22,164 nt of DNA from a virus (Duplodnaviria; Heunggongvirae; Uroviricota; Caudoviricetes): the IMG/VR virus record IMGVR_UViG_2657245091_000012; one strand, given 5' to 3'. This document shows positions 1 to 22,164 of this stretch, one piece after another. The notes below the pieces were generated by a model. That model saw only the letters and a program-made list of their open reading frames with translations, had not been told where the DNA came from and did not search any database. Position 1 is the first letter of the stretch. Each line of letters begins with the position of its first letter. The position numbers and the translations under genes were made by a program.

Positions 1-256
1 CGTCGTTTTTAATCGACTCGACGTACTCGATATCTTCTTTTACCGGGTTAGTGTCGTCGAAACGCAGGTTGCACTGGCCTTTATAGTCCTGGGCGATCCC
101 GAAGTTCAGGCAGATAGATTTCGCATGACCAATATGCAGATAGCCATTCGGTTCCGGCGGGAAACGGGTATGTACTGTGGTGTGCTTACCACTGGCCAGA
201 TCTTCATCGATGATCTGACGAATAAAGTTAGTCGGGCGGGCTTCTGCCTCACTCAT
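1..256 (-). CDS. glnS: glutaminyl-tRNA synthetase, 5' portion (about 85 N-terminal codons; gene continues past the left edge)
   Basis: Reverse-complement translation from the ATG at 254-256 reads [85 protein letters not shown], which I recognise as the enterobacterial GlnRS N-terminus including the class I HIGH motif. Not in the ORF track because it runs off the window edge. Confidence 0.9.
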
Positions 257-3232: not shown

Positions 3233-3307
3233 TCCGAAATTTAACTCTCCGTTTGAATGACGAAATAACAAAGTGATGACAATAGGAGGATAACCAGGAG
3301 GTGAAGA

Positions 3308-5555: not shown

Positions 5556-5948
5556 TCATTGTCGCCATGCGTTTTTTAACTCAGGAATATCTGCCATTTC
5601 AATTAACTTGCGAAGTCCAGCACTGACTTTCCCATTACCAACCATAGCAAGCCAATCTCTTACTGCTTTCGGCATGTAGAGCGTTGCTGTTACCGGCTCT
5701 TCAACCCTGGCAGGACATCCGCATACAGGCCATTTAATTGATTCCATAACTTCGGAGGCTGGGGTGAGGGCGGGGACATTGAGTATATCTCTACCAGAAA
5801 ACTGGATAACGATCCGTTCAGCTAGCGAGAGTATCTCACTTTCGGCAAGAATTGATGCCAACTGCGCCTCAACAAGAAAGCGACTTGTTGTGTTCAGAGA
5901 GTGGCTCTTAGCGCCATTTTTATACGAAACAAAGATTCGATACGCCAT
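5556..5948 (-). CDS. hypothetical protein (130 aa) with a C-terminal ribbon-helix-helix-like segment (possible DNA-binding regulator)
   Basis: C-terminal TATLYMPKAVRDWLAMVGNGKVSAGLRKLIEMA fits a beta-strand/helix/helix RHH pattern (Arc/MetJ/CopG-like); tightly spaced upstream of the 152-aa ORF. Confidence 0.4.
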   Translation of the reverse strand: MAYRIFVSYKNGAKSHSLNTTSRFLVEAQLASILAESEILSLAERIVIQFSGRDILNVPALTPASEVMESIKWPVCGCPARVEEPVTATLYMPKAVRDWLAMVGNGKVSAGLRKLIEMADIPELKNAWRQ

Positions 5949-6106
5949 AACTCTAATGATTTGTGTTAGAAAACTAAAATTAAATCACATAACAACATGC
6001 GTGTTAATATATTTTATTTTACTAAGCCTATTGACTAAATCACAAAGTATGTATTGTTAGCACGTCAAAAGAACCTTCACGCCGCGCCCGAATTTAGGGC
6101 TTAACC

Positions 6107-7804
6107 GTGAATAAAAACATTCAGCCAGCTCGTGATCGCGAGCGCGAGATTATGAATCGGGCGGCAAGCGTCATGGCTATGACCGTCGATCCGACCACCG
6201 ATGCAGCAGGCAACATGATTGCTGACCAGGCAGTAATGATGGAAAACCTGGATAAAGCAATCCAGAAAGTGCCTATGTTTGAAGGCGTAAATCCAGAGGT
6301 CGCTCGTCAGATCACTGGTGGGTGGGCTATGTCTCTGCATGAGTATAAACGTCAACATGGTCATTACCCGGCAAGTGACATCCTGGCGAACGCACACATG
6401 GCTCTTGAACGCCTGATGACTGAATGTGCCAGTGATACCCATGAAGGCACGGGTAAGGCAATGTTTGAGTCTGTCGCGCAATCAATGCGTAGCTCTGACG
6501 GCGTAATGAAAGTTGCTCAATATGCTGCTCTAATTCTGCCTGCCTCTCTGGGCGCTGCTACCAGTGATGCCTGTACTTTTGTTCCTTGTGATCGTGACGA
6601 GTCAAATATTTATGAACTGGTCAACGTAGCAGGCACAAAATTCGGCACCTTCAAACAAGGTGACGAACTGAATATGCAGTCAGCTGGTGTTTATTCTCAA
6701 ATGAAGCGCCTGTATACCCTTTCCACTAAAGGGGATGGCAGCACCAAAACCTTCCAGTTCGACATCCAAAATTTTGAGGGACAATCCTGCCCGCTTCGCG
6801 CTGGTTATAACAAACTGCTGATCAACCGCAAACCGTCCAAAGTTGACGACGGCGATGGCAACCTTTATTTCAATGCTAAAGACAGCAAAGGTAATGCTTT
6901 CTCAGCGACTGCCAAAGTTGCCTATGACACTGGTGTCATTGACATTACATTTACCCAGGCTCCGCCAGAAGGTACTGAAATTGCTGTTCAGGTCGAAATT
7001 AACATCGAGCGCAATCCAAGCCTGATTCCTGTGATCAACCAGGCTATGCGTAAGTACGAAGTTCGTCCGTCCCAGTACGTAATTGCTTCCGAACACACGG
7101 TAATGTCCGCATCCGATTTAAGCCGTGAGCACGGCCTTGAATTAGCGGCACTTCAGTTCTCCGCGATGCGTAACTGGATCTCCCATGAAACCGACATCAT
7201 GCGTCTGCGCACCCTGGTATTCCATACCGTTTATGGTCGTGAATTTGATGTGGCTCTGCCGGAAGCTCAAAACTATGAGTCCTGGGTCGGCCTCCTGCGT
7301 CACGTAGTAAACGCTCTGTCTCAAGAAATGGCAAATCGTACCCTGACAACGGGTATTCGTGGCGGCTTTGCTGGTGGTGACGCCGCGAACTTCCTGCGCT
7401 CTCTGCCTCCACAGCACTTCCAGATCGCACCAGGTTACGTTCAGTCGCCGTATGTACAGTACATCGGCACCCTGTTTGGCACGATTCGTATTTACGAAGT
7501 GCCGCAACCTGTCTGTGAGCAATTCCAGGCACAGGGATATGACTTCGGGCTGGATGACATCTTCTTCTATGGGCGTGGCGAAGGCATCGGTAAAGCCGGT
7601 CTGATTGCTGGTGATGCAGTCCCAGCAATCCCTTACGTGCACGAAACCAATCCGTCTCTCGTTAACCGTACCACTCTCTGGGGCAGTGCCATCAACGAAG
7701 TACATCCTCGCAACGGTGAAAACTACTTCACCCGCCTGCGTCTGACTCGTGCCAAAGAAGGTGCTATCGACATGCTGACAGGCAAGGTTAACGAAAAAAA
7801 GTGA
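6107..7804 (+). CDS. major virion structural protein, probably the major capsid protein (565 aa); GTG start
   Basis: Large ORF at the head of the structural block, followed by a stem-loop and an Ig-like protein gene and then the sheath gene; the capsid call is inferred from position and size, not from a recognised motif. The start is uncertain (GTG at 6107 or ATG at 6152). Confidence 0.45.
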   Translation: MNKNIQPARDREREIMNRAASVMAMTVDPTTDAAGNMIADQAVMMENLDKAIQKVPMFEGVNPEVARQITGGWAMSLHEYKRQHGHYPASDILANAHMALERLMTECASDTHEGTGKAMFESVAQSMRSSDGVMKVAQYAALILPASLGAATSDACTFVPCDRDESNIYELVNVAGTKFGTFKQGDELNMQSAGVYSQMKRLYTLSTKGDGSTKTFQFDIQNFEGQSCPLRAGYNKLLINRKPSKVDDGDGNLYFNAKDSKGNAFSATAKVAYDTGVIDITFTQAPPEGTEIAVQVEINIERNPSLIPVINQAMRKYEVRPSQYVIASEHTVMSASDLSREHGLELAALQFSAMRNWISHETDIMRLRTLVFHTVYGREFDVALPEAQNYESWVGLLRHVVNALSQEMANRTLTTGIRGGFAGGDAANFLRSLPPQHFQIAPGYVQSPYVQYIGTLFGTIRIYEVPQPVCEQFQAQGYDFGLDDIFFYGRGEGIGKAGLIAGDAVPAIPYVHETNPSLVNRTTLWGSAINEVHPRNGENYFTRLRLTRAKEGAIDMLTGKVNEKK

Positions 7805-7917
7805 TGGTGGCGAACGTGTCGGTATCACCAACGTCACTTGACGTAGATGAAGGTGAAACTATCGCCGCGAACACTTCAAAGGCACAGAAAAAAACAAAGC
7901 AGAAGTAAGGCAAAAAC

Positions 7918-7938
7918 ACGCCCCTGAATAAGGGGCGT
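7918..7938 (+). other. GC-rich stem-loop (acgcccc / ggggcgt, 7-nt loop) between the capsid-like gene and the Big_2 gene, immediately followed by the SD caggag
   Basis: Direct reading of complementary arms; no downstream U-tract, so not a canonical intrinsic terminator. Confidence 0.5.
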
Positions 7939-7951
7939 TCAGGAGAAAAGA

Positions 7952-8230
7952 ATGGCAAACATTCAAGTAACTATCACGCCATCTGACGCAACAGACAAAT
8001 CTTTCACTGTTGAGTCAGATCACCCTGAAATTGTCCAGGTTGATGGCACTACATGTACCGCTCTTAAGGCCGGGCAGGCAGTGCTGACAATCAAAACAAA
8101 TGACGGCAATAAAACCGCACAGTGCACAGTCACTGTTAGGGAGGCACCTAAAAGCGTAAGCGCCGTCAGTGTTGAACCAACTACGAAAGAAGTAACCGTA
8201 GGCGACAACTTCACGGTAAGCGAATCCTGA
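7952..8230 (+). CDS. small Ig-like (Big_2-type) domain protein, possible capsid or tail decoration protein
   Basis: 92 aa; TITPSDATDKSFTVESDHPEIVQVDGTTCTALKAGQAVLTIKTNDGNKTAQCTVTV has the typical bacterial Ig-like group 2 pattern; SD caggag upstream of the ATG. Confidence 0.6.
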   Translation: MANIQVTITPSDATDKSFTVESDHPEIVQVDGTTCTALKAGQAVLTIKTNDGNKTAQCTVTVREAPKSVSAVSVEPTTKEVTVGDNFTVSES

Positions 8231-9999: not shown

Positions 10000-10734
10000 A
10001 TGAAAAATTATACTGCTGATCCTTTTATGCGTGCGATTTTCGGTTCTGGCTGCTTTGAAAGCGGTGATAAATCCACGCAGGACAATAATGATAACGCCAT
10101 GCTGGAAAGCGCAGGACAGAAAGGAAAGGACACTCAACCAAAGCCCAAAGACGACATTGAAACCGCGATGATGGAAGCGGTTGAATCCCGTGCACAAGGT
10201 GATATGCGCAGCCTGGCAGCTTCCATGCTTGCTGGTTGGGTTGAAGATGGTGATCCGGAGGCTGACTCATTTGATGCATTAGCAATCACTATGGCTGGCC
10301 TGGCTGATATCGATGAAGACACCGATTTCACCGATGAGCAAATCGATGCTTATAACGATGCTCTCGCAGCTCTTGCTGATGCAGCTGTTGCGCTTGGCGC
10401 TGATCAGGATGATGTAACCGAAATGATCGACGATGAAGATGACTCAGCTGCCGAACGTGTTTATGACGCTCTTTCCGAAAGCGACACCGACATGATGGAA
10501 ACAGCTATTGCCATTTACACCGTTGCTGGTGGTGATAGCGCAATGCTGGAAGCGGTACGTAAAAAAGTGGTTCGTGATGGCAAGGTTACCATCATCCGTA
10601 AACGCCCGCGTCCTCGCCGCATGACGTCATTGCAAAAACAGGCGCTGAAAAAAGCACGCCGCAAAGCACATACATCCGTAGCGAATATCAACCGCAAAAA
10701 ATCAATGCGCATTCGCAAAAAACGCGGTTTGTAA
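10000..10734 (+). CDS. hypothetical virion-block protein with a strongly acidic body and a highly basic C-terminal tail (244 aa)
   Basis: Asp/Glu-rich centre (DIDEDTDFTDEQIDAYNDALAALADAAVALGADQDDVTEMIDDEDDSAAE) and Lys/Arg-rich C-terminus (IIRKRPRPRRMTSLQKQALKKARRKAHTSVANINRKKSMRIRKKRGL); ATG at 10000 with SD gagagg (the track start at 9994 is a TTG). Confidence 0.5.
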   Translation: MKNYTADPFMRAIFGSGCFESGDKSTQDNNDNAMLESAGQKGKDTQPKPKDDIETAMMEAVESRAQGDMRSLAASMLAGWVEDGDPEADSFDALAITMAGLADIDEDTDFTDEQIDAYNDALAALADAAVALGADQDDVTEMIDDEDDSAAERVYDALSESDTDMMETAIAIYTVAGGDSAMLEAVRKKVVRDGKVTIIRKRPRPRRMTSLQKQALKKARRKAHTSVANINRKKSMRIRKKRGL

Positions 10735-13585: not shown

Positions 13586-14338
13586 AGACTGCTGATAGGT
13601 AAATTTTATCCTGGTAACTTTGCCGCCTTCCGTCACCTCTGAGAAGACTATTTTCATTTTTGTATTTTTTTCAATCTCTGCTACAGCCTTCGTTAAAAAA
13701 CTTCTCTTAAATTCGGCATACCGCTGATAGCTTTTTGGTAACCCATAACGCTCCCGCATCCATTCGACGCCAAGTATGGCAAAGCCGCTTCCATCATCCT
13801 TCCTGTACTGGCATAAGGACTCATAAAGCCGCATAGAATAAGGATTTGTAAGGCGAGATACTTCGGTAAAATTCAGCCTTGTGAATCTCTTATCAAGCAG
13901 AGTAAAAAACGGCATGAGATATGGATTAAGATGAATAATGTAAGTCCCGCGCCGTGGTGAATAGGCATCCTTAATCATCCAAGGATAAGACTCATAACTG
14001 TCTTCTGATTCGGTCGATTCATCAGGGTTATATATCGTAACTTTCTTCTCGCTAAGCCCTGAAATGGCCTTACGAATATCCTTGCTGGCTTCAGCAGAGG
14101 GCAAATTATACATCTCTGCATATTCGTTGACCGTCAACTCACAGGCACCTGAACCAAGAACGCCATCCTTAGAAGCATAGCGAAGTCTTCCCACCACAAT
14201 AAACAACAGTCGCTTTTGGTCGCGAGTCAGGTGATAAGCAGCCTCCGTGATCTCATTGGCTTGTGCCAAACTACGACTAATAGGTGTCGCTGACTCAATC
14301 AGGCTGACGGCTTTTGCTGTTAATTCCGCTCTGTTCAT
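13583..14338 (-). CDS. repA: iteron-binding replication initiator, Rep_3 family, F RepE-like
   Basis: Strong similarity to F RepE as recalled (LTEAAYHLTRDQKR, SAEASKDIR, NPYSMRLYESLCQYRKDDGSGF, PKSYQRY). The track start (14371) is a TTG inside an iteron; the ATG at 14336-14338 (MNRAELTAK...) gives an N-terminus of RepE-like length. Confidence 0.9.
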   Translation of the reverse strand: MNRAELTAKAVSLIESATPISRSLAQANEITEAAYHLTRDQKRLLFIVVGRLRYASKDGVLGSGACELTVNEYAEMYNLPSAEASKDIRKAISGLSEKKVTIYNPDESTESEDSYESYPWMIKDAYSPRRGTYIIHLNPYLMPFFTLLDKRFTRLNFTEVSRLTNPYSMRLYESLCQYRKDDGSGFAILGVEWMRERYGLPKSYQRYAEFKRSFLTKAVAEIEKNTKMKIVFSEVTEGGKVTRIKFTYQQS

Positions 14339-14361: not shown

Positions 14362-14622
14362 GTGAGGGCAATTTTTACATCACTTTGAGGGCAATTACTA
14401 CACCTTTTGAGGGCAAATCTTACACCTTTTGAGGGCAAATCTTACACCGATCGTATTTAATTGAGGGCAAATCTTACACCAGCCTCCTCTACAGCCCGCG
14501 CCACTACTGGCTCCAGCGACGCCTAAAAAGGATCTAAAAAGGATTAAAAATGGAAAAAGGTTTATAAAAATACTCTGTGGATATGTGAGTAGCGTCACTT
14601 AAGGTGTAAAAATCACCCTCAA
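14362..14622. repeat. replication origin region: five direct 22-bp-spaced iterons (TTGAGGGCAAATCTTACACC), an AT-rich tract, a DnaA-box-like site and one inverted iteron
   Basis: Iterons at 14362-14381, 14384-14404, 14405-14426, 14427-14448 and 14461-14480; AT-rich tract 14521-14572 with repeated aaaaagga; tgtggatat at 14576-14584 is 8/9 to the DnaA box TGTGGATAA; inverted iteron variant at 14603-14622. Iteron sequence resembles F oriS iterons as recalled. Confidence 0.7.
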
Positions 14623-14726
14623 TAATCGCTTCTCGACCGGCAAAGATCTTCATTCAATCCCCATCGCAAATCACACACTCCCTATCCTCTGGAAAATGAA
14701 CAGATACCTGCTTTTCGGAGGAATAA

Positions 14727-19350: not shown

Positions 19351-19725
19351 ATGCTTTATGAAATAGACGCAAGACTTCAAACGAATGAGAGCGGTGTCAT
19401 TATTGCAGAAGGAAGTACCGCAGCATGGATGGCCCGACTTGACGAGTGGCTACGAACCCCTGAAGGGAGTGTTTATGGTTTACCCTCTTGGGGGAATCCA
19501 ATGGAAGAATTTAAGCATGAACCATTCGGCTCTGAAACTTCGCACATAGTTGAAGTGGCTATTGAAGGGAGAATGATGAAAAAACTACGACAAGACTTGC
19601 CAGGTTTGGATGTGCAGGGGATTCGTTGCACATCAATTTCTGAAGATTCTTTATTAATTAGTTTTTATGCGAAAGGTGGGAGCATGGATATTGTTATGCA
19701 GAAATCAAGTGGGGTGGGCGCGTGA
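19351..19725 (+). CDS. hypothetical small tail/baseplate protein (124 aa)
   Basis: Directly downstream of the tape-measure-like gene; its stop overlaps the next gene's start (GTGA). Confidence 0.4.
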   Translation: MLYEIDARLQTNESGVIIAEGSTAAWMARLDEWLRTPEGSVYGLPSWGNPMEEFKHEPFGSETSHIVEVAIEGRMMKKLRQDLPGLDVQGIRCTSISEDSLLISFYAKGGSMDIVMQKSSGVGA

Positions 19726-21152
19726 CGATTACAGAATTACTGGACAAATTTAATGCCAAGTTAAATGAAAACACATGGTGGTCACGATTTGTAAATAGTC
19801 AGTTTGTGCAGATGCACGCTATATTCGGATCACAGCTTATTTATATTGCCCGTACATTTGCAAGCCGCGGCCTCACTGAGGGACTTATTTCAACGGCTAC
19901 GCGCCGCTCAAGTATTTTAGCGGTTGCTGAAGACCGTAGCTACGTAGGGAGATTTGTTAGTGCTTCATACGGAACAACGTCTATAACCAATAAAACTGAT
20001 CGGGATATTACGTTACCAGCCGGGGCTGAATTGCTTGCCAATGACCAAACACCTTTGGCAATTATTAACAGTGTTGTAATTCCTGCTGGAGGAACTGTTT
20101 CTGGCGTAGAAACTAAACAGCATGAAGCTGTTAGCGTTACATTTGATATTGAGAAGGAAACTTTATTTCTGACATTGTTGCTTTCCAGAGAGTTAACAAA
20201 AGAAGTCTCTAGCCTGGATGTTTATGTTATTACAGATGGCGTAGAAGAAAAATGGACATATAACCCATTATTTAGAATGTCCAGAGACAAGAGTAAGCAC
20301 TATTCATTGGCATATAAACCTACAGAACAACTAGGAGTCAAGTTTGGTGATGGTTCTATGGGTATGATGCCTCCAGCAGGCTGTCAGGTTCGAATCGATG
20401 TTATGGCTAGCCTTGGCGACTATACTTTGGCTGAAGGACAAAAGTTAGAACCGGCTGGAAATATCGCTCAATATGTGGAGTCACTAGAGTTTAAAACTGA
20501 TTCGATCATTACCGGTGGTAGTGGTATGGAAACTACAGAAGAAACTCGAAATCGTGCTCAGTATTATGTTGCATACGATGAACAAGTGGTATGGGGCGGT
20601 GATTATCGCCAATTCATTCAGAATGTTGTTCATGGAACTTCATGGTTGAACGTTTGGGGCGAAGCGTTACAAGAGAAAATAACTGGGTTTGACGTTCGAA
20701 ACATCAACAAAATCTTCTTTTGCGGACATAAACCGGGTGTAAGCCAGGCTCAGCTAAAATCAGAAATACTGAAAGCTCTAGAGAATGTTCCAAATGAGTT
20801 GAACAAGCGGTTCGAGTATGTAGATACAAATGAACAGCCATTTACTATAAATTTTACAGGTATTGCACGTAAAAATGTTCTGATAGACGACGCTCAAAAT
20901 GCTATTAAAGCAGCGTTGGAAGATAATTTTGGCCGTGATTCGTCATCATTCAGTTTATTACTACAGAGTGATGATGATTCCCAGCAATGTTATGCACAGG
21001 TAAAAGTTAAAGATATTTGGCGAGTAATAGAGTCTCTGGATATGTTTCTGTCTTACGACATAACAATACAAAATATGAAAGATGCTGTTTACTTTAATGA
21101 CTTCATTTATCTTGACGTGAAATCTTCAACGTTCAGCATTTCTTACCCGTAA
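19722..21152 (+). CDS. hypothetical tail/baseplate protein (476 aa), GTG start overlapping the upstream stop
   Basis: Translational coupling (GTGA at 19722-19725); position after the tape-measure-like gene suggests a baseplate or tail-completion role; no motif recognised. Confidence 0.4.
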   Translation: MTITELLDKFNAKLNENTWWSRFVNSQFVQMHAIFGSQLIYIARTFASRGLTEGLISTATRRSSILAVAEDRSYVGRFVSASYGTTSITNKTDRDITLPAGAELLANDQTPLAIINSVVIPAGGTVSGVETKQHEAVSVTFDIEKETLFLTLLLSRELTKEVSSLDVYVITDGVEEKWTYNPLFRMSRDKSKHYSLAYKPTEQLGVKFGDGSMGMMPPAGCQVRIDVMASLGDYTLAEGQKLEPAGNIAQYVESLEFKTDSIITGGSGMETTEETRNRAQYYVAYDEQVVWGGDYRQFIQNVVHGTSWLNVWGEALQEKITGFDVRNINKIFFCGHKPGVSQAQLKSEILKALENVPNELNKRFEYVDTNEQPFTINFTGIARKNVLIDDAQNAIKAALEDNFGRDSSSFSLLLQSDDDSQQCYAQVKVKDIWRVIESLDMFLSYDITIQNMKDAVYFNDFIYLDVKSSTFSISYP

Positions 21153-21162
21153 TGAGGTTGGC

Positions 21163-21827
21163 ATGAAAGATAATTGGCTTAAGGAACGATTAACTAAAGT
21201 AAAACAGGATTCACATCTCTGGAGTGCCTTTATCGACGCTTTACAGGATGTCTGGAATGAGGCAGTAGAACCAATATTAACAAGAATAAGTAACAGAAAA
21301 TCCTTCTTCACTATGGACAGTGAGGATATGGATGCCCGCATTGCTGAATACGGGCGTTTTTTCGTCATCACTGAAAAAGATAAGGCTCGTAGGCCAATGC
21401 TACTGGCACAACGTTTAGATGAAGTGCACTTTAAAGGCACTATCTTGCCTATTGAGCAGACATTCTGGCGTGAATTCGGTTGTATTCCTGTTAGCTGGGA
21501 ACCGCTGTATGCACCTGTAAATATAGAAAAACACCCCTATGGTTCATATTTTGCGACCGAAATAGAAATACCTACGGCACAGGCTCAATTCGGTGAGTTC
21601 TTCCTGACATCAAGGGGGCTGGTCGTTGTTGATCAGAACAAGCTATATCGCTCATATGGAGAGCAGGATAAAGAAGCCGCTGTGCAGAAATTGTTATCTG
21701 ACTTCGAAACAGTAATAGCCCCTTTGTTGCCATTGCATATTGTTTTTGATGGCGTCTCGTTTCGGCTTAGTGCTGTATTCCCTGAAGTGGCAGAAATACT
21801 AAATTGCTTGTCTACGGATGTTTCGGT
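21163..21827 (+). pseudogene. structural-block gene truncated at its 3' end by an IS3-family insertion
   Basis: The ORF (ATG 21163, SD gaggttgg) reads without a stop into the IS terminal repeat; its last 16 codons ([16 protein letters not shown]) are encoded by IS sequence. Confidence 0.5.
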
Positions 21828-22164
21828 TGAACCGCCCCGGAAATCCTGGAGACTAAACTCCCTGAGAAAGAGGTAAACAGGATGACTAAAAATACTCGTT
21901 TTTCCCCCGAAGTCCGTCAGCGGGCGATTCGTATGGTTCTGGAAAGTCAGGATGAATATGACTCACAGTGGGCGGCAATTTGTTCCATTGCCCCAAAGAT
22001 TGGCTGTACGCCGGAGACTCTGCGTGTCTGGGTTCGCCAGCATGAGCGGGATACCGGGAGTGGTGATGGTGGACTCACCACCGCTGAACGTCAGCGTCTG
22101 AAAGAGCTGGAACGTGAAAATCGTGAACTGCGCCGCAGTAACGATATCCTTCGCCAGGCTTCCG
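21828..22164 (+). mobile_element. IS3-family insertion sequence, left end (IS629/IS1203-like by recollection); continues past the right edge
   Basis: Terminal repeat beginning TGAACCGCCCCGG at 21828, followed by SD and the orfA start; OrfA N-terminus is typical of IS3-family IS629-type elements. Confidence 0.8.
21882..22164 (+). CDS. IS3-family transposase OrfA (helix-turn-helix and leucine-zipper part), partial at the right edge
   Basis: Translation [94 protein letters not shown] is recognisable as IS3-family OrfA. Confidence 0.85.

Follow-up and report, generated by a model that had tools for sequence, protein, structure and literature searches.

The 22,164-bp stretch of DNA analysed here (hereafter the window), whose carrier is, judged by its sequence, a D6-like, P1-related phage-plasmid, ends inside an insertion sequence (IS) of the IS3 family, IS629 group, that interrupts codon 222 of the homologue of P1 gene 16, a baseplate gene. 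Both ends of this IS, the target duplication, the collinear flanks and the displaced 3' part of the gene are found in a closed plasmid record, and the part of the protein that has been lost ends in a motif conserved among its homologues. The explanation that best accounts for the whole, to which we assign a probability of roughly 0.8, is that an IS629-group element would have arrived by the normal copy-out/paste-in route of the IS3 family, inserting into codon 222 and duplicating GGT; its donor was most likely one of the ~30 resident copies in the host genome. In the resulting arrangement, the first 665 nt of gene 16 would read into the left repeat of the IS and end after 15 foreign codons, leaving the last 59 gene 16 codons about 1.3 kb downstream without a start. 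On the basis of P1 genetics and structure, the most likely consequence is an element that is defective as a phage and still a plasmid.

Looking up the exact chimeric protein encoded at the junction (WP_077787218.1, identical copies of which occur on just three contigs) identified the window as the entire contig JXVZ01000060.1 of the short-read draft assembly GCA_000948555.1. Its closed counterpart is plasmid "unnamed11" (CP031917.1; NZ_CP031917.1), a circular molecule of 95,228 bp from Escherichia coli O45:H2 FWSEC0003, a Shiga-toxin E. coli (STEC) strain; the draft contig and the closed plasmid are likely to come from one isolate. The analysis gives this 95-kb plasmid an identity as a D6-like phage-plasmid. 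Indeed, positions 1-21827 of the window are 98.5% identical to phage D6 at the nucleotide level, with two gaps in total, and the gene order is that of D6, a P1-related plasmid prophage that belongs to group P1g2 of the phage-plasmids (PMC10879196). The window combines the features by which a D6-like (P1g2) element is recognized, namely collinear P1-type virion genes, a Rep3-type RepA with iterons, and ParM-type partition genes. The repA gene (13586-14338, minus strand), whose recorded domains are Rep3_N and Rep3_C, is followed on the side of the pmgB late operon by five 20-bp iterons (TTGAGGGCAAATCTTACACC and variants; 14362-14480, spaced 22-32 bp apart), presumably the plasmid replication origin. 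Some 190 bp separate the iteron block from the late promoter predicted at 14668. Gene 16 aside, the remaining 24 complete D6 coding sequences (CDSs) of the stretch are all full length and gap-free in the window, including the partition genes, upfC/upfB, 23 (capsid), 22 (sheath), 21, pmgG, bplB, pmgC, tub, repA, pmgB, sit, pmgA, and bplA. The last of these (19722-21152, plus strand), a homologue of baseplate wedge protein 3 (T4 gp6-like), is intact, matching PHROG 1369 with an E-value of 5.7e-196 and D6 with 99.6% amino acid identity across all 476 residues; the role of its product as the gp16 partner in the wedge triplex is taken from P1 cryo-EM. At its other end the contig cuts glnS (glutaminyl-tRNA synthetase, D6 orf62; window 2-256, minus strand) at residue 85, a break that is probably due to similarity with the chromosomal glnS.

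The lesion in gene 16 can be placed to the nucleotide. The native 5' part of the gene (D6 orf37) occupies positions 21163-21827 on the plus strand, amounting to codons 1-221 and 2 nt of codon 222, and identity to the uninterrupted relative pUTAK-19-1 extends exactly 665 nt from the start codon, which sets the breakpoint at 21827/21828. From 21828 onward the sequence reads TGAACCGCCCCGGAAATCC..., followed by an open reading frame (ORF) that begins at 21882 and runs off the window. The same division is apparent in a megablast search with 21163-22164, where phage D6 and ~100 D6-like plasmids align to bases 1-665 only, and IS629 copies from Stx phages and E. coli genomes align from base ~662-665 onward. 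The whole query is covered by one record only, NZ_CP031917.1, out of 72,556 plasmids and, likewise, by one of 5,426 complete E. coli genomes; a 35-mer spanning the left junction had no exact match in the genome-contig and viral-contig collections searched. Read through the junction, the gene becomes a chimeric ORF of 237 aa (21163-21876, plus strand) with its TAA stop at 21874-21876, just as a preliminary description of the window had it in stating that the ORF at 21163 reads into an IS repeat at about 21828 and ends on IS codons. The first 222 residues of this ORF are native, with 100% amino acid identity to D6 gp16, Val222 being retained by chance (GTA to GTT), and the last 15 are IS-coded, foreign, and highly basic; in all, 222 of 281 native residues are kept and 59 are lost.

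Two minor features of the junction may be mentioned here. The chimeric stop lies 5 nt ahead of the ATG of the transposase gene orfA, directly after the GAGG Shine-Dalgarno-like sequence of orfA, and all three frames that enter the left end of the IS are closed before orfA (21828-21884), one by a TGA at once, another by a TAA after 9 codons, and the third by a TAA after 15 codons. The idea that a read-through transcript folds so as to occlude the orfA ribosome-binding site is unsupported, in that an RNA fold of the junction had a minimum free energy of -18.7 kcal/mol (z = 0.10) and no significant structure.

In its uninterrupted form the gene measures 846 bp and encodes 281 aa, corresponding to D6 orf37, which is annotated as "similar to P1 gene 16." The intact protein matches PHROG 2015 (E 2.5e-116) over profile positions 1-273 of 275, compared with 1-220 for the window protein, and it matches the structures of P1 Gp16 in the PDB (9ay5/9vzk) over residues 1-238 (phmmer E 2.3e-59; 38% identity in the alignment). 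Its precomputed family is PF26903 (Phage_P1_Gp16); neither the intact nor the truncated protein had a match in NCBIfam or in a copy of Pfam without the PF26903 model. The supposition of the preliminary description that the gene encodes a baseplate component is borne out by the PHROG 2015 and P1 Gp16 matches, and its concern that an uninterrupted homologue might end at the same site is met by D6 orf37, which runs 59 residues further. Like P1 gene 16, the gene lies after bplA and before R-S-U, shares homology over residues 1-238, and is separated from R by a hairpin and a late promoter. Unlike the P1 gene, the copy described here is without the equivalent of P1 residues ~224-278 and is fused to 15 IS-coded residues, and unlike gene 16 of D6 it is interrupted. 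In P1, gp16 is baseplate wedge protein 2 (BW2), which has a T4 gp7-like fold and builds a conserved wedge triplex with two BplA conformers, and to which two cryo-EM studies have both assigned weak fibre densities (bioRxiv 10.1101/2025.07.21.665459; PMC12810830). Residues 240-278 of P1 gp16 are unmodelled and have been proposed as a docking site for a gpR dimer and/or the long tail fibre (bioRxiv 10.1101/2025.07.21.665459). Amber mutants place P1 gene 16 among the genes listed as essential, and the efficiency of plating was <5.2e-5 when it was knocked down by CRISPRi, although polar effects on R, S, and U confound this score, as its authors themselves warn (PMC10695390).

The insertion divides gp16 where its ordered wedge body gives way to the flexible tail. 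An AF2 monomer model of gp16 (mean pLDDT 68.6, moderate confidence) has an ordered body and a stretch of pLDDT <50 over residues 223-257 that begins at the truncation point, and we match this segment to the unmodelled tail of the P1 protein. Residues 223-260 are variable in alignments of gp16 homologues, but a conserved motif, L.lD..PlDaW.LD, is found at the very end of the protein, with D270 invariant and D265, W272, and D275 each reaching 90% conservation or more (58 clusters, 281-aa numbering). Full length is likewise the rule, in that 58 of 59 homologue clusters reach at least 270 aa, many with C-terminal extensions up to 484 aa, and the D6-type gene 16 is whole in 105 of 106 plasmids, the exception being unnamed11. 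With a native end at residue 222, the window copy has neither the full length nor the C-terminal motif of PF26903, and it is a truncated member of this family, in effect a pseudogene. The longest homologues (350-484 aa), found in phage-plasmid-sized contigs of Pantoea, Enterobacter, Serratia, and Citrobacter, extend beyond the conserved motif, and such extensions seem to fit a gp16 C-terminus that forms an outward-facing adaptor end.

These properties of the lost tail bear directly on whether the element can still complete a lytic cycle. If gp16 functions as it does in P1, the truncated protein would keep its ordered, wedge-forming body and lose the flexible C-terminal tail with the conserved terminal motif. 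Particles produced on induction would then either be without properly attached fibres or not be completed at all through failure of baseplate assembly, and infectivity would be lost in both cases, while replication (repA and iterons), partition, and addiction functions would hold the element as a stable plasmid. We consider it quite probable that gp16 function, and infectivity with it, is lost. The 59 lost residues are in part a variable, probably disordered linker, so some residual gp16 function is possible. At the extreme, the insertion could be real and the truncated gp16 could still work, the 59-residue tail being dispensable and the element fully infective. The poor conservation of residues 223-260 and their low-confidence or disordered prediction would agree with this, as would the invisibility of P1 residues 240-278 in cryo-EM maps and the retention of the whole ordered wedge body (1-222). 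A dispensable tail is nonetheless difficult to reconcile with the conservation of the motif at its very end, with the finding that just one of the 59 homologue clusters falls below 270 aa and that the gene is complete in 105 of 106 plasmids, with the P1 studies that put fibre attachment on gp16 (on residues 240-278 in the case of the preprint), or with the addition of 15 foreign, highly basic residues to the truncated end. We accordingly consider a fully working truncation unlikely, though it is the strongest competitor to a loss of gp16 function.

The IS itself is readily classified. Its left 337 bp (21828-22164, plus strand) are 100% identical to many annotated IS3-family copies in O45, O103, and other strains, which RefSeq labels "IS3 family transposase, programmed frameshift." This portion comprises the left terminal inverted repeat (IRL; 21828-21852, plus strand; TGAACCGCCCCGG...), whose first 13 nt are perfectly complementary to the right end (the inverted repeats of IS629 are annotated as 25 bp in AP000422.1), and the first 94 of 108 codons of orfA (21882-22164, plus strand), which lies in the orientation of gene 16 and is cut by the contig end. 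The translation of 21882-22163 contains a helix-turn-helix (Pfam HTH_Tnp_1, E 1.8e-12). Read in the closed plasmid, orfB matches rve (E 1.5e-26) and HTH_21, and scores 312.5 bits against NCBIfam transpos_IS3, where the cutoff is 160. The end of orfA is ...CTGGAAAAAATAATG, a slippery A-run where orfB begins in the -1 frame; this arrangement appears to be that of a programmed frameshift giving OrfAB, as is characteristic of the IS3 family, and RefSeq annotates identical IS copies with a "programmed frameshift" and an AL1L pseudoknot. The termini are of the TG...CA type (TGAACCGCCCCGG.../...CCGGGGCGGTTCA), and the length is 1,308 bp in the closed, error-prone record and 1,310 bp in clean copies, the family range being about 1.2-1.55 kb. 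The element thus unites a helix-turn-helix orfA, a DDE orfB, TG...CA repeats, and the length of an IS3-family member with a target duplication in the 3-4 bp class.

Within that family, the full copy shares 95.4% identity with IS629 of VT2-Sakai and 98.6-98.9% with the 1,310-bp copies of O103:H2 12009 and of the FWSEC0003 chromosome; these 1,310-bp copies are flanked by 3-bp duplications of TTT and CAC. ISfinder treats elements with at least 95% nucleotide identity to a reference as isoforms. By this standard the 95.4% identity to the IS629 copy annotated in VT2-Sakai, the sequence compared here, is borderline. The element is like the IS629/IS1203/IS3411 group in its length of ~1,310 bp, its TGAACCGCCCCGG... 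repeats, the -1 overlap of orfA and orfB at an A-run, and the 3-bp duplication, as well as in being multi-copy in enterohemorrhagic E. coli (EHEC) and often situated inside prophage genes. It is unlike Sakai IS629 in a 4.6% sequence difference, which is within the 4-5% divergence reported between subtypes of IS629; this IS is known for 3-4 bp target duplications and has 62% of its copies in prophages (PMC3271280). In FWSEC0003, matches to the IS are found at 28 places on the chromosome, four on its other plasmid, and one on unnamed11. The window ends inside the IS because a short-read contig broke at a multi-copy repeat, which accounts for the position of the contig end. In the plasmid copy, 1 nt is missing at each of two places, an A-run and a CCAGG site; these gaps are most likely MinION errors, and unnamed11 most likely carries an intact IS of 1,310 bp.

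Continuation of the sequence beyond the window is provided by CP031917.1, where the other end of the IS and the displaced 3' fragment of gene 16 adjoin one another. In the extract of the closed plasmid that covers this region (L001), the IS spans 6666-7973 and the gene 16 fragment resumes at 7974. Identity to pUTAK-19-1 resumes 1,308 nt on, three bases ahead of the break point; correspondingly, the target site GGT at 21825-21827 of the window has its second copy beyond the window, at 7974-7976 of L001. To the right of the displaced tail, R, S, U, the invertible S'/U' segment, and cin are arranged as they are in D6, and the annotation of the closed plasmid contains no transposase besides that of the IS. 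A complete IS with a GGT repeat and D6-collinear flanks therefore indicates simple transposition without rearrangement. Most of the preliminary description is upheld by these findings: an IS3-family element (HTH_Tnp_1 and transpos_IS3 matches) truncates a structural gene to 222 of 281 residues, the sequence past the window is indeed a complete IS, its second end and the displaced fragment can be located, the target-site duplication exists (GGT, 3 bp), and the plasmid functions are intact, with repA, iterons, and partition genes in the window. It erred in taking the interrupted gene for the last of the structural block, as R, S, and U follow directly in both the closed plasmid and D6, and its suggestion that the IS mediated a rearrangement or integration finds no sign in a circular 95-kb plasmid with a complete IS, a GGT duplication, and collinear flanks.

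Such a larger IS-mediated event (deletion, inversion, cointegration, or chromosomal integration), by which the structural block would have been broken up, would be in keeping with the deletions and rearrangements that IS629 causes in EHEC genomes (PMC3271280), and the contig alone, stopping inside the IS, cannot decide the matter, but it is very improbable given that gene 16 resumes precisely at the right end of the IS, with GGT repeated and R, S, U, S'/U', and cin coming next, and that the IS is present at one place only on a circular 95,228-bp molecule. Just as improbable is a junction that arose as an assembly artefact, with a chimeric contig end and gene 16 intact in the cell; the short-read contig does end in a repeat with ~30 genomic places, and the sole other record with the junction may be from the same strain, but the independent MinION and mate-pair assembly spans the IS with unique flanks and a clean 3-bp duplication, and the artefact is rejected because a chimera would neither make a target duplication nor place the 3' fragment at the other end of the IS.

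The closed record must be read with its error profile in mind. The FWSEC0003 assembly is a MinION-based hybrid with mate-pair reads (PMC6787312), and over the shared 22 kb CP031917.1 has 46 bases missing and none extra relative to the window. Homopolymers account for 28 of its 38 gaps and CCWGG (Dcm) sites for most of the others, and the displaced gene 16 fragment contains a 2-nt gap at CCAGG that follows the same error pattern. RefSeq annotates many "frameshifted" CDSs on the closed plasmid, with sit split into seven ORFs and tail-fibre genes also affected; in light of the homopolymer and Dcm signature, these are therefore MinION artefacts rather than decay. We accordingly rejected the idea that sit and the tail-fibre genes have truly decayed by frameshifts, sit being intact in the window and the gaps bearing MinION signatures. 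Because the closed assembly is error-ridden, it is uncertain how long exactly the IS is (1,308 vs. 1,310 bp) and whether the genes beyond the window are intact.

The lesion is probably confined to gp16, to judge from the late promoters predicted for the element. By aligning the regions upstream of the D6 late operons, we derived a motif, AAAT[C/A]ACA-N7-TAnnnT, that is present upstream of 7-8 of them (lydA, R, pmgB, 23, prt, ddrB, upfC) and looks like a D6-type late-promoter signature; a first guess at the motif, [AG]AAATCAC[AT], was uninformative. In the form AAATMACA-N8-ANNNT it has three copies in the window where 0.15 would be expected, all of them on the plus strand and just upstream of an operon start, at 3263-3283 (upfC), 6037-6057 (gene 23), and 14668-14688 (pmgB-sit). 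The third copy, AAATCACA-N7-TATCCT, is predicted to head the pmgB-sit-pmgA-bplA-16 operon, at whose end the IS is sense-oriented, and a transcript initiated at ~14668 would continue as sense RNA into the IS. One further copy lies in the closed plasmid between the displaced gene 16 tail and R (10191-10211 of the extract L004). Given this predicted promoter ahead of R, transcription of R-S-U should therefore continue despite the insertion. Between gene 16 and R, P1 likewise has an annotated late promoter, LPs (AAGTTACTT-N4-TACAAT), which follows a hairpin; searching the D6-type element for the P1 Lpa box (AAGTTACTT-N3-5-TAnnnT) returned none. Right after the gene 16 stop, the D6-type element has a perfect GC-rich hairpin (5850-5875 of the extract L003; TTCTTCCCCC-GCATTT-GGGGGAAGAA), and at the same place P1 has another perfect GC-rich hairpin, CACCCCG..CGGGGTG, of unrelated sequence. 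That a hairpin and then a late promoter for R occur in P1 as well as in the D6-type element suggests that this operon boundary is conserved.

The position and orientation of the IS also raise the slim possibility that complete contractile particles without fibres are formed, and/or that late read-through delivers a burst of IS629 transposase; we would place this below even the chance that the truncated gp16 still works. Were fibre-less particles to form, the allele would be a natural separation-of-function mutant showing the C-terminal tail of gp16 to be the fibre or gpR adaptor, and were read-through into the transposase to occur on induction, transposition would be coupled to the lytic programme of the phage.

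Nothing described here is new in kind. Insertions of the IS629 type into phage genes of EHEC are well documented, structures of the gp16 family have been solved, the record is public, and the IS is already annotated there by RefSeq. P1-like phage-plasmids with lost phage functions have likewise been described (PMC10879196). The present element resembles defective prophages and degraded phage-plasmids in that a virion gene has been hit by a transposable element while the functions of vertical inheritance persist, but it differs from degraded phage-plasmids in that a single lesion is evident, and it would for this reason represent the very first step of decay rather than a visibly degraded element. 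That lesion, the only one in a clean 22-kb contig, lies in a baseplate gene that is essential in P1, the rest of the element being known from the error-prone assembly only. It is one more hit of the IS629 type on an EHEC phage gene, and possibly the first step from phage-plasmid to plain plasmid. The allele is at the same time a ready-made natural truncation that bears on the proposed role of the gp16 C-terminus in fibre docking. Two comparable cases came to our attention: in the D6-like plasmid NZ_CP122593.1 of ETEC6335, the part that corresponds to the window includes an annotated transposase of the IS66 family, and a gp16 homologue of 212 aa from Xenorhabdus bovienii looks like an independent truncation. 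Lesions of the structural block therefore recur.
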